A stretch of DNA of 64,000 nt from an uncultured Gammaproteobacteria bacterium (GTDB lineage Bacteria; Patescibacteriota; Patescibacteriia; SG8-24): NCBI GenBank assembly GCA_964491475.1, contig CAZBFO010000001.1, positions 8,605-72,604 on the forward strand, in the 5' to 3' direction. How positions within the stretch are numbered: position 1 is the first letter of the stretch; each line of letters opens with the position of its first letter. Under the pieces are notes generated by a model. That model saw only the letters and a list, made by a program, of their open reading frames with translations. It was not told where the DNA came from and searched no databases. The position numbers and the translations under genes were made by a program. This document shows positions 11,709 through 13,493 of the stretch, in pieces.

Positions 11709-11717
11709 GTGCTATAC
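11709..11717 (+). promoter_or_regulatory. Putative extended -10 (TGCTATACT) for pilin 1
   Basis: Extended -10 consensus TGnTATAMT. There is a weakly spaced TTGACA at 11668-11673, about 35 nt upstream, which is too far for a standard -35. Confidence 0.35.
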
Positions 11718-11815
11718 TCTGAAGGTCTAATATCATATGTGGATAAGGTTTTGCCCTGTCCGCGGCTTGGTTTCCGACGTTCGTCGGTCACACCTAAGCT
11801 TGTAACGACCAAACT

Positions 11816-12328
11816 ATGACGAAGTCGTCCAACAAGGGCTTCACGCTCATCGAGCTGCTCGTGGTCATCGCGATCATCGGCTTGCTCTCGACTCTTGCCG
11901 TCGTCGCTCTCAACAGCGCCCGCGCCAAGTCTCGTGACTCGAAGCGCGTCGCCGACATCAAGCAGATTCAGACCGCGCTCGAACTCTACTTCGCGGACAA
12001 CAACAGCTATCCGTCGATGGGCACGGGTACGCCTGCGGCAACCATTCTCGGCGTGGCCGGTACCGGCGGCACGAAGGTGCTTTGCGGCAGCGGCGTGTTC
12101 AGCGACACTTGCAGCGGCACCACCTACATGGGCCTTGTCCCGCTTGCTCCTACGCCGGTTGATGGCACCTGCACCACCGGTACGGGCGGCACCAACCACT
12201 ACACCTACACCTCCAGCGCTGCCAGCGGCTCAACCAGCGCTACCTACACGCTCACCTTCTGCCTCGGTGCGCAGGTCGGCGATCTCGGTGCGGGTCCGCA
12301 CACGGCTTCGCAGAACGGCATCCAGTAA
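11816..12328 (+). CDS. Type IV major pilin paralog 1 (prepilin, class III signal peptide)
   Basis: MTKSSNKG|FTLIELLVVIAIIGLL carries the prepilin peptidase site G|FTLIE with E+5. The conserved R..D.KR..D...I..ALELY..DN..YP pilin core is present. Confidence 0.85.
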   Translation: MTKSSNKGFTLIELLVVIAIIGLLSTLAVVALNSARAKSRDSKRVADIKQIQTALELYFADNNSYPSMGTGTPAATILGVAGTGGTKVLCGSGVFSDTCSGTTYMGLVPLAPTPVDGTCTTGTGGTNHYTYTSSAASGSTSATYTLTFCLGAQVGDLGAGPHTASQNGIQ

Positions 12329-12406
12329 AGAGAGAGGCGAGATCGGCATGCGCCGGTTGGCCGGAAAAGCGTCCCCAGGGGGACGTTTTTCTTTTGGTGA
12401 AAAATA

Positions 12407-12415
12407 TGCTATGCT
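12407..12415 (+). promoter_or_regulatory. Putative extended -10 (TGCTATGCT) for pilin 2
   Basis: Same motif class, about 31 nt upstream of the ATG at 12447. Confidence 0.3.
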
Positions 12416-12446
12416 GGTACGGTCTTACGGTTTTAAGCAACTCATA

Positions 12447-12962
12447 CAGCCAAACATGCCGCAGTCCACCTCGGTCAACAGCCAAGGCGCAAAACAGGGC
12501 GCATCGCAAAAGGGTTTCACGCTCATCGAGCTGCTCGTGGTCATCGCCATCGTCGGCCTGCTATCGGTCATCGCCATGGTCGGAATGACCGTCGCCCGTT
12601 CCAAGTCGCGCGACACCAAGCGCGTCGCCGACATTCGGCAAATTCAAAAGGGCCTGGAACTCTTCTATACGGACAATTTGGGCTATCCGACGGTGTCTTC
12701 GGCTGCCGTTCTGGGTCAGGGGACGGCACTTTCGCTCTGCGGTACCGCCTTGAGCGCGACGTGCAGCGGCACGGCCTATATTTCTCGGCTGCCGACGGCA
12801 CCAGACGTCGCCGAAAGCGGCTGCAGCGCCTCGACCTACAGCTACGTCTCGAGCGCCACTGCCGGAACCAGCAGCTCGTATTCGATCGTCTTCTGCCTGG
12901 GGAACAAGGTCGGGGAGCTGAACGCCGGCCTTCGCACGGCGACGCCTAGCGGCATTCAGTAG
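12447..12962 (+). CDS. Type IV major pilin paralog 2
   Basis: MPQSTSVNSQGAKQGASQKG|FTLIELLVVIAIVGLL. The ORF-track entry at 11895 is an artefactual upstream extension overlapping pilin 1 in another frame. Confidence 0.85.
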   Translation, partial: QPNMPQSTSVNSQGAKQGASQKGFTLIELLVVIAIVGLLSVIAMVGMTVARSKSRDTKRVADIRQIQKGLELFYTDNLGYPTVSSAAVLGQGTALSLCGTALSATCSGTAYISRLPTAPDVAESGCSASTYSYVSSATAGTSSSYSIVFCLGNKVGELNAGLRTATPSGIQ

Positions 12963-12967
12963 AAACG

Positions 12968-12976
12968 TGCTACAAT
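12968..12976 (+). promoter_or_regulatory. Putative extended -10 (TGCTACAAT) for pilin 3
   Basis: Lies only 8 nt before the ATG at 12984. This suggests either a leaderless transcript or use of the downstream ATG at 13023. Confidence 0.3.
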
Positions 12977-12983
12977 CCGAGCG

Positions 12984-13493
12984 ATGATTCGTAAGTCGGG
13001 TGTCCGCCCGTTCCGTAGACGTATGCGCCAGCACAACAAGAAGGGTTTCACGCTCGTCGAACTGCTCGTAGTGATTGGCATCATTGCCGTGTTGACGTCC
13101 ATCGCGGTTATCGCACTGGGGAGCGCCCGCAGGAAGGCGCGCGATGCAAAGCGTGTCGCGGACGTGAAGGCCATACAGAACGCGCTGGAACTCTACTATC
13201 AGGAATCGAACGGCTATCCTACGGAGTCGCCGGCAGTCGAACTGGGCCAGGGAAGTTACAAGGCCCTGTGCTCTACCGGCTTTGAGACCACCTGCGGCGG
13301 CACGGCCACCGAGTTCATGGGGCTGGTTCCGACGGCGCCTCTGCCGATGGATGGCGGCTGCTCGGCGGGTCAGAACCGCTACATGTATGCGGCTTCTGCC
13401 GGAGGCGCCTACGACATCACTTTCTGCTTGGGCGACAATTTCGGAGATTATCTGGGCGGCATGCGCACAGCGACCGAGGACGGCATCAATTAG
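12984..13493 (+). CDS. Type IV major pilin paralog 3
   Basis: ...MRQHNKKG|FTLVELLVVIGIIAVL. An alternative start at 13023 (MRQHNKKGF) gives a more typical short leader peptide. Confidence 0.85.
   Translation: MIRKSGVRPFRRRMRQHNKKGFTLVELLVVIGIIAVLTSIAVIALGSARRKARDAKRVADVKAIQNALELYYQESNGYPTESPAVELGQGSYKALCSTGFETTCGGTATEFMGLVPTAPLPMDGGCSAGQNRYMYAASAGGAYDITFCLGDNFGDYLGGMRTATEDGIN

Follow-up and report, generated by a model that had tools for sequence, protein, structure and literature searches.

Three tandem type IV pilin genes with separate promoter-like elements, and a DnaA-box-like site before the first, in a Patescibacteria pilus locus

Pilin genes and associated features

The stretch of DNA analysed here (the window) is 64,000 nucleotides (nt) of contig CAZBFO010000001.1, assembly GCA_964491475.1. 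Its guanine-plus-cytosine (GC) content is 63%, its non-coding share is 11%, and almost all of its genes are on the + strand. It contains the pilin section of the type IV pilus locus of an uncultured, ultrasmall, high-GC member of the Patescibacteria (candidate phyla radiation, CPR). Three pilin genes stand in tandem between pilC and pilD. We read them, with a probability of about 0.75, as old tandem duplicates that are all functional. Their layout appears to be that of separate promoter/terminator modules and not of a single operon. Pilin 1 would supply the principal subunit, and the other two would be accessory. The leader of pilin 1 contains an exact match to the DnaA-box consensus. Related loci used for comparison carry L numbers. 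L001 is a contig of a related metagenome-assembled genome (GCA_023246195.1). The features are listed below, with protein lengths in amino acids (aa) and cleavage sites marked by a slash.

11624-11653, + strand: terminator-like hairpin and TTTT after pilC; RNA fold -22.5 kcal/mol, z = -3.4; weaker
11710-11718, + strand: extended -10 of pilin 1, TGCTATACT; identical and in the same place in L001, L003, L087 and L089
11725-11815, + strand: pilin 1 leader, about 90 nt; conserved in close relatives; two possible hairpins; no Shine-Dalgarno match
11738-11746, - strand: exact DnaA-box consensus, TTATCCACA on the - strand and TGTGGATAA on the + strand; in the pilin 1 leader, 19 nt past the -10
11816-12328, + strand: pilin 1, canonical major-type pilin, 170 aa; leader peptide MTKSSNKG/F; mature form 162 aa with 4 Cys
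12363-12399, + strand: intrinsic terminator after pilin 1, AAAAGCGTCCCC-AGGG-GGGACGTTTTT, then CTTTTGG; GC-rich 13-bp hairpin and T-tract
12407-12415, + strand: extended -10 of pilin 2, TGCTATGCT; TGCTATGCT or TGGTATGCT in the same place in L001, L164 and L165
12456-12962, + strand: pilin 2, 168 aa; long 20-aa leader peptide ending KG/F; no terminator after it
12968-12976, + strand: extended -10 of pilin 3, TGCTACAAT; 5 nt past the pilin 2 stop; equivalent in L001, L164, L166 and L167
13023-13493, + strand: pilin 3, 156 aa; leader peptide MRQHNKKG/F; in-frame alternative ATG at 12984 would give 169 aa
13500-13535, + strand: intrinsic terminator after pilin 3, AAAAAGGGCC-CGAG-GGCCCTTTTT; RNA fold -23.1 kcal/mol, z = -3.2
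13574-13582, + strand: extended -10, TGCTATCAT, before pilD and the minor-pilin genes

The three genes are intact open reading frames. Each encodes a class III signal peptide, with a basic leader up to Gly, Phe at +1, Glu at +5, and a hydrophobic helix. The cleavage and methylation motif KG/FTL[IV]ELLVVI is common to all three in the alignment. Pfam N_methyl (PF07963) matches each of them (E values of 7e-9 to 3e-8), and the TIGR02532 scores are 29-37 bits against a cutoff of 16.3 bits. An earlier note on this DNA had described three tandem pilins with a shared processed N terminus, and this description holds. The core pattern that it gave, R..D.KR..D...I..ALELY..DN..YP, is approximate. A core is shared, but it reads GLELF in pilin 2, and ES replaces DN in pilin 3. 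Divergence is not limited to the C-terminal two-thirds, as had been stated. The paralogs are 53-69% identical over mature residues 1-55 and 46-51% identical over the remainder. Identity is about 56% overall and 48-54% over the mature parts. Four Cys are invariant. The content of Gly, Ala, Ser and Thr (GAST) is 39-48% across the three proteins and 39-45% in pilins 2 and 3. A 186-nt direct repeat in the N-terminal coding region is common to the three genes, with 69-75% DNA identity.

An AlphaFold2 model of pilin 1 (pLDDT 84) is lollipop shaped, with a helix at residues 11-62 and six strands. As modelled, pilin 1 has the lollipop fold of a roughly 50-residue N-terminal helix on a beta-sheet head. 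The best matches in a fold search of the PDB were PAK pilin (1oqw) and EpsG (4lw9), and both were weak (E values of 0.13-0.35, TM scores of 0.35-0.47). A finer family placement from structure was rejected for this weakness (E of at least 0.13), which leaves the general pilin fold. Sequence matches in the PDB were to type IVa pilins, including PilE1 of Streptococcus sanguinis, and to GspG, and covered the N-terminal helix only. Assignment to GspG (TIGR01710), the major pseudopilin of the type II secretion system, was rejected. The scores were 44-52 bits against a cutoff of 88.85, and the match was limited to the N-terminal 65 residues.

The source annotation starts pilin 3 at 12984 (169 aa), and the earlier note gave about 170 aa for each of the three pilins. 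A start at ATG 13023 is most likely, because all five orthologs (70-88% identity) are 156 aa long. ATG 12984 stands 7 nt past the pilin 3 -10 element, a leaderless-type geometry. It was rejected as the primary start given the 156-aa orthologs, and the ATG is out of frame or soon terminated in relatives. Either start yields an identical mature protein. The ATG 6-7 nt past the pilin 3 -10 was found in the window (12984-13022), L164 (1051-1077), L167 and L001 (2691-2741). In the relatives it opens a short leaderless upstream reading frame, which in L164 reads MIKGGLPP and stops. In the window the same ATG reads in frame into pilin 3. A -10 also stands 8 nt 5' of an ATG at 46790 and 35782. This suggests that the organism has leaderless mRNAs. 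The pilin genes of low-GC relatives follow a strong GGAGGTG, unlike those of the window.

Promoter-like elements and terminators

A TGCTAYRMT element of its own precedes each pilin (at 11710, 12407 and 12968), as the earlier note had reported. The pattern has 6 occurrences in the 64 kb, where 0.95 would be expected, and all are on the + strand. These three sites directly 5' of pilins 1, 2 and 3 are half of the total. The loosened pattern TGCTAYNNT gains a copy 5' of pilD (13574). For the general extended -10, TGNTANNNT, 12 of the 15 + strand sites lie in the non-coding 11% of the window. They are 8-106 nt 5' of gene starts wherever a next gene was called. Since TGNTANNNT is concentrated in non-coding DNA before genes, the extended -10 (TGnTAnnnT, without a clear -35) would be the organism's normal, general promoter type and not a pilin-specific one.

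The predicted elements agree with an extended -10 in motif (TGn and TAnnnT), in distance to the gene and in conservation among relatives. The element is kept before each orthologous pilin in L001, L164, L166 and L167 despite diverged surrounding sequence. It lies 35-45 nt 5' of the 156-aa start in pilin 3-type relatives. No convincing -35 was found for the pilin 1 -10, and the hexamer at the right spacing matches at 3 of 6 positions. TTGACA at 11667 was considered as its sigma-70 -35 and rejected, being 40 nt from the -10 and too distant.

Terminators were called by direct RNA folding. A generic scan missed all three, probably because A/T-extended stems absorb the T-tract. A GC-rich hairpin with a U-tract past the stop codon was found after pilC, pilin 1 and pilin 3 and not after pilin 2. 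A strong terminator had been reported after the third pilin only, and this must be corrected by the one after pilin 1 and the weaker one after pilC. The pilin 1 terminator and its adjoining upstream hairpin fold at -34.8 kcal/mol (z = -3.9), and the terminator has equivalents in L001, L084, L164 and L166. Two sub-threshold matches in an Rfam search coincide exactly with the two pilin terminators. Pilin 1 is flanked by terminators on both sides and has its own extended -10. The gap between pilins 2 and 3 is the sole gap in which folding revealed no terminator.

DnaA-box-like site

The site in the pilin 1 leader matches the 9-mer DnaA box (TTATCCACA) exactly. We searched 137 nonredundant loci (902 kb) for TGTGGATAA. 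Forty of the 47 exact matches lay within 250 nt 5' of a pilin 1-like gene. The enrichment in the 5% of DNA 5' of such genes was 103-fold (binomial p = 3e-44). Exact matches occurred in 39 of the 137 loci (e.g., L004 at 7702, L009 at 4861, L022 at 4923 and L082 at 4866). In an unbiased count of 9-mers 5' of canonical pilins, TGTGGATAA ranked first, in 38 of 105 loci, and the next unrelated 9-mers reached 18. Box-bearing pilin loci come from genomes of 29% to 66% GC. In tandem arrays the exact box is 5' of a single gene, namely the copy that most resembles the canonical pilin. No box was found before pilins 2 and 3 of the window, even at one mismatch.

Two fixed geometries recur. In the first, the box is in + orientation and 29-30 nt separate it from a downstream -10 hexamer. 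In the second, it is in - orientation and overlaps the last base of the -10 (TGGTATAATGTGGATAAG) or lies 5-20 nt 3' of the -10. If the box is an operator, they would suggest activating control in some lineages and repressing control in others, including the organism of the window.

The box 5' of canonical pilins points to an undescribed regulatory site. Full-text literature searches found no description of a DnaA box with a pilin gene or with CPR. DnaA is a candidate binder of the pilin 1 box because the motif is identical to the DnaA box. We tentatively propose, at somewhat under even odds, that the box is a real operator and that DnaA, or a protein of the same specificity, controls the main pilin across the Patescibacteria. 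Such control would tie pilus-mediated attachment to the host to the state of replication or of the cell cycle, and the extra tandem pilins would be exempt from it.

Other boxes occur in the window. A second exact box at 35817 stands 29 nt 5' of a -10, TGATAGTAT, in the predicted - strand promoter (35782-35825) of the gene at 33557-35773. This - strand gene encodes 738 aa with no Pfam match. It is apparently leaderless, and its -10 stands 8 nt before the ATG. The geometry of this box is that seen at the pilin promoters of other lineages, which hints at a small shared regulon. At 59500-59660, one-mismatch boxes TGTGGGTAA (59522) and TGTGCATAA (59613) lie on either side of a TATACT -10. They precede a secreted protein with peptidoglycan-binding and immunoglobulin-like domains that starts near 59657. 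Neither dnaA nor an oriC-like cluster of boxes was found in the examined parts of the window.

Pilin 1 leader RNA

The leader is conserved in the close clade (L001 at 1393-1484, L003 at 9911-10000, L084 and L087). It can form one hairpin from GTGGATAAGG and CCTTATCCGC and another from GGCTTAGG and CCTAAGC around a variable hairpin. The box lies in one arm. The consensus fold of 5 sequences is -25.7 kcal/mol, with a double-sided change in 1 of 28 pairs. A covariance model of the leader found nothing in 648 kb beyond its 5 training sequences, and no Rfam family matches the leader. The fold is plausible and the covariation negligible, which is too thin to call an RNA element. A role in RNA only would be insufficient, because other lineages carry boxes upstream of the -10.

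Orthology, selection and copy number

L001 has the same synteny and three pilins, each with its own extended -10 and its own terminator. In the tree, pilins 1 to 3 are 1:1 orthologs of the three L001 pilins. Each is given below with the mature identity, the ratio of nonsynonymous to synonymous divergence (dN/dS) and the synonymous divergence (dS).

Pilin 1: mature identity 84%, dN/dS 0.20, dS 0.45
Pilin 2: mature identity 64%, dN/dS 0.28, dS 1.1
Pilin 3: mature identity 82%, dN/dS 0.06, dS 2.4

By these estimates all three are under purifying selection (dN/dS of 0.06-0.28). Pilin 2 is the fastest evolving. The low dS of pilin 1 would fit a highly expressed, codon-constrained gene. Pilin 1 is also the nearest of the three to the pilins of other lineages (66-71% identity), and all 119 non-self matches to it among the matches listed are at least 55% identical. 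For the pilin 3 type, a database of 5.8 billion proteins yielded just 5 orthologs that reach 70% identity.

Across 105 nonredundant Patescibacteria loci, the largest tandem pilin array has one gene in 76, two in 21 and three in 8; these sizes are lower bounds, as many contigs are cut. The gaps between tandem pilins in other Patescibacteria contain an extended -10 in 25 of 37 cases and a terminator in 16 of 37. The earlier note had proposed checking copy number among related genomes. It varies, with 3 or 4 copies in close relatives and 1-3 more widely. In the close relatives L164/L165 and L166 the array extends to a fourth pilin. In L167, as in the window, pilin 3 is followed by pilD. The fourth pilin (L164 at 1671-2126, L166 at 1647-1683 and L165 at 1296-1333) begins MRQVKQKG/FTLIELL, lies 3' of the pilin 3 ortholog and has its own extended -10. 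The tree also places independent duplications in several lineages (L003, where the first and third pilins are 89% identical; L004, 73%; L008; L036; L025; and L048). In L004 (5369-7698), a PMT_2 glycosyltransferase and a GT2 glycosyltransferase replace pilC 5' of the tandem pilins. They may indicate pilin glycosylation.

Surrounding type IV pilus locus

Profile searches with Pfam and NCBIfam place the type IV pilus locus at 5145-17193. The order runs from pilM to pilB, a receiver protein, pilC, the three pilins, pilD and the minor pilins. The neighbouring genes are as follows.

From 5145, + strand: pilM, PilM domain match
8193-9971, + strand: pilB, Pfam T2SSE (1e-117)
9993-10376, + strand: receiver-only response regulator (Response_reg, no output domain), between pilB and pilC
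10412-11617, + strand: pilC, Pfam T2SSF (1e-59); stop codon at 11615-11617
13616-14434, + strand: pilD, prepilin peptidase, A24_N_bact and Peptidase_A24

The pilins are thus accompanied by a prepilin peptidase (PilD), an assembly ATPase (PilB) and a platform protein (PilC), and by PilM. A counterpart of the receiver-only regulator occupies the same place in L003. Pilin-like genes continue past pilD to 17193, in the usual position of minor pilins. Two have N_methyl domains, and the third is unassigned by Pfam and NCBIfam. Beyond them are ligA and the gat amidotransferase genes (gatA confirmed).

The labels among the nearest database relatives are Patescibacteria, Parcubacteria, Uhrbacteria and Falkowbacteria. 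Patescibacteria-type pilus loci were also found on contigs labelled "uncultured Gammaproteobacteria" or "Candidatus Binatia" (L006, L009, L011, L024 and others). Errors of binning or taxonomy probably explain these labels. Elsewhere in the window, the region at 44000-48000 has a GC content of 53%, against 63% windowwide. It has few confident open reading frames at 44600-46140 and four extended -10 motifs, and an Rfam search of it gave no family match.

Proposed organization and alternatives

The integrity of the genes, their paralogy and orthology, and the motifs and hairpins with their conservation are observed, and from the sequence we infer transcription starts, expression levels and fibre composition. 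Four transcription units are proposed. The first would run from the promoter at 11710 through the long leader and pilin 1 to its terminator, as a monocistronic unit. The second would start at 12407, cover pilin 2 and read through to pilin 3. The third would start at 12968 and end, after pilin 3, at the terminator that it shares with pilin 2. The fourth would start at 13574 and cover pilD and the minor pilins. Pilin 1 would be the principal fibre subunit. Of the three copies it most resembles the pilins of other lineages and its dS is the smallest, and no other copy has the conserved leader or a DnaA-box-like site. Size, GAST content and the four conserved Cys of the pilins, with the low dS of pilin 1, are indirect indications of a major, fibre-forming role. 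Pilins 2 and 3 would be lineage-restricted accessory subunits of the major type. They would share PilD cleavage and PilB/PilC assembly with pilin 1. By mixing into the fibre, or by substituting for pilin 1 under other conditions, they may alter the exposed head domain.

Several points weigh against this organization. The pilin -10 elements are consensus matches and thus predicted promoters. TGNTANNNT occurs 21 times in the window against 23.8 expected, which is not above chance, and its placement alone is non-random. A generic sigma-70 promoter and terminator scan reported the pilD promoter only and none of the three pilin sites. There is no Shine-Dalgarno match before any of the pilins (11800-11815, 12440-12455 and 13008-13022). 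Pilin 2 transcripts should read into pilin 3 because pilin 2 has no terminator. The gap between the two genes is short, and they are probably at least partly co-transcribed.

The outcome of the promoter scan and the chance-level TGNTANNNT count would also fit a single polycistron from pilB or pilC to pilD, as would the co-oriented, closely spaced genes. On that view the -10-like motifs would be weak or arise by chance, and the mRNA would be stabilised or processed at the hairpins. We regard this as improbable. The hairpins are GC-rich with T-tracts (z = -3.2 to -3.9), the pairing of motif and terminator is kept in relatives with diverged flanks, and the extended -10 motif is strongly intergenic. 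The three pilins do not appear to be one simple polycistron. The earlier note had suggested independently regulated alternative major subunits rather than one polycistron. Separate -10s, terminators and their conservation support independent transcription units, though pilins 2 and 3 would not be fully independent of each other.

The main rival on roles is unlikely, though more probable than the single polycistron. It holds that pilin 1 alone builds the fibre and that the other two are minor pilins of low abundance or primers like pseudopilins. Wide conservation, a conserved leader and the box are found with pilin 1 only, and its dS, the lowest of the three, fits high expression. However, pilins 2 and 3 match pilin 1 in size, in their four Cys, in GAST-rich composition and in fold class, and the locus already has its pilin-like genes past pilD. 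The earlier note had also suggested antigenic variation. Copies that recombine to vary the exposed surface, or a form of phase variation, like pilE/pilS of Neisseria, would draw on the 186-nt direct repeat, on the differing copy number among relatives and on the 89% identical first and third pilins of L003, which suggest recent duplication or gene conversion. We consider this very improbable for the window. Every copy is full length with a leader peptide and a predicted promoter. Cassette-type variation is unsupported because there are no truncated silent copies within the 64 kb, the copies have 1:1 orthologs and are under purifying selection, and the 69-75% identity of the DNA repeat would not allow frequent conversion.

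Tandem duplicates arranged as separate modules remain our preferred reading. Tandem paralogs of the major type are common and ordinary for this group, and the array itself adds little. It documents Patescibacteria pilins as separate promoter/terminator modules, with repeated independent duplication and a copy number that differs among close relatives. Among the organelles by which uncultured Patescibacteria episymbionts may contact their hosts, type IV pili have the best support. Full-text literature searches found nothing on the regulation of Patescibacteria type IV pili. The DnaA-box-like site is the part worth pursuing. It is identical to the universal DnaA box and marks one pilin gene per array across a wide range of GC contents. 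It would give a concrete hypothesis on pilus control that is testable in the genetically tractable Saccharibacteria.

Comparison with known systems

DnaA acts as a transcription factor through DnaA boxes at dnaA, nrdAB and guaB of Escherichia coli, sda of Bacillus subtilis and gcrA of Caulobacter. The pilin loci resemble these promoters in having the consensus TTATCCACA close to the promoter, either in an activator-like position 5' of the -10 or in a repressor-like one that overlaps or follows the start site. They differ in that no pilin gene was found as a DnaA target in the full-text literature and in that the putative site of the window is inside a potential leader hairpin. The CtrA motif is TTAA-N7-TTAA. 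Caulobacter pilA is under the control of CtrA (PMC11264516, PMC7196804). There, too, a cell-cycle master regulator is tied to pilin transcription through promoter-near sites. The regulator and its motif are different, as is the phylum, and pilA is a single gene.

Neisseria pilE/pilS, too, comprises several pilin-related sequences that are conserved in their 5' part and variable in their 3' part. The pilS copies are silent, promoterless and 5'-truncated. No such copy was found among the three of the window, each of which is complete and orthologously conserved and has a start codon, a leader peptide and a -10.

The saccharibacterium TM7x encodes PilA1 and PilA2 at two loci for two pili with separate ATPases, and the pili serve host attachment and motility (PMC11623550). 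These are likewise Patescibacteria type IV pili. Their major pilins are small, lollipop shaped and highly expressed, and several minor pilins accompany them. In contrast, the three paralogs of the window stand in tandem beside a single assembly set.

The closest known arrangement, by analogy, appears to be that of S. sanguinis. Its type IV pilus has the tandem major pilin genes PilE1/PilE2 (also PilA1-3), whose products are co-assembled in one fibre (PMC11121087; PDB 8pfb). In both, several similar full-length pilin genes are neighbours within a single pil locus with monoderm-type machinery, class III signal peptides throughout and a single set of PilB, PilC and PilD. Co-assembly is demonstrated in S. 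sanguinis and may also occur here, and the head domains are unrelated in sequence. The copies of the window each have their own promoter-like element, and one has a special leader. By its genes alone, the window carries tandem full-length paralogs of the major type within a pil locus, as do heteropolymeric type IV pilus systems of the S. sanguinis kind.

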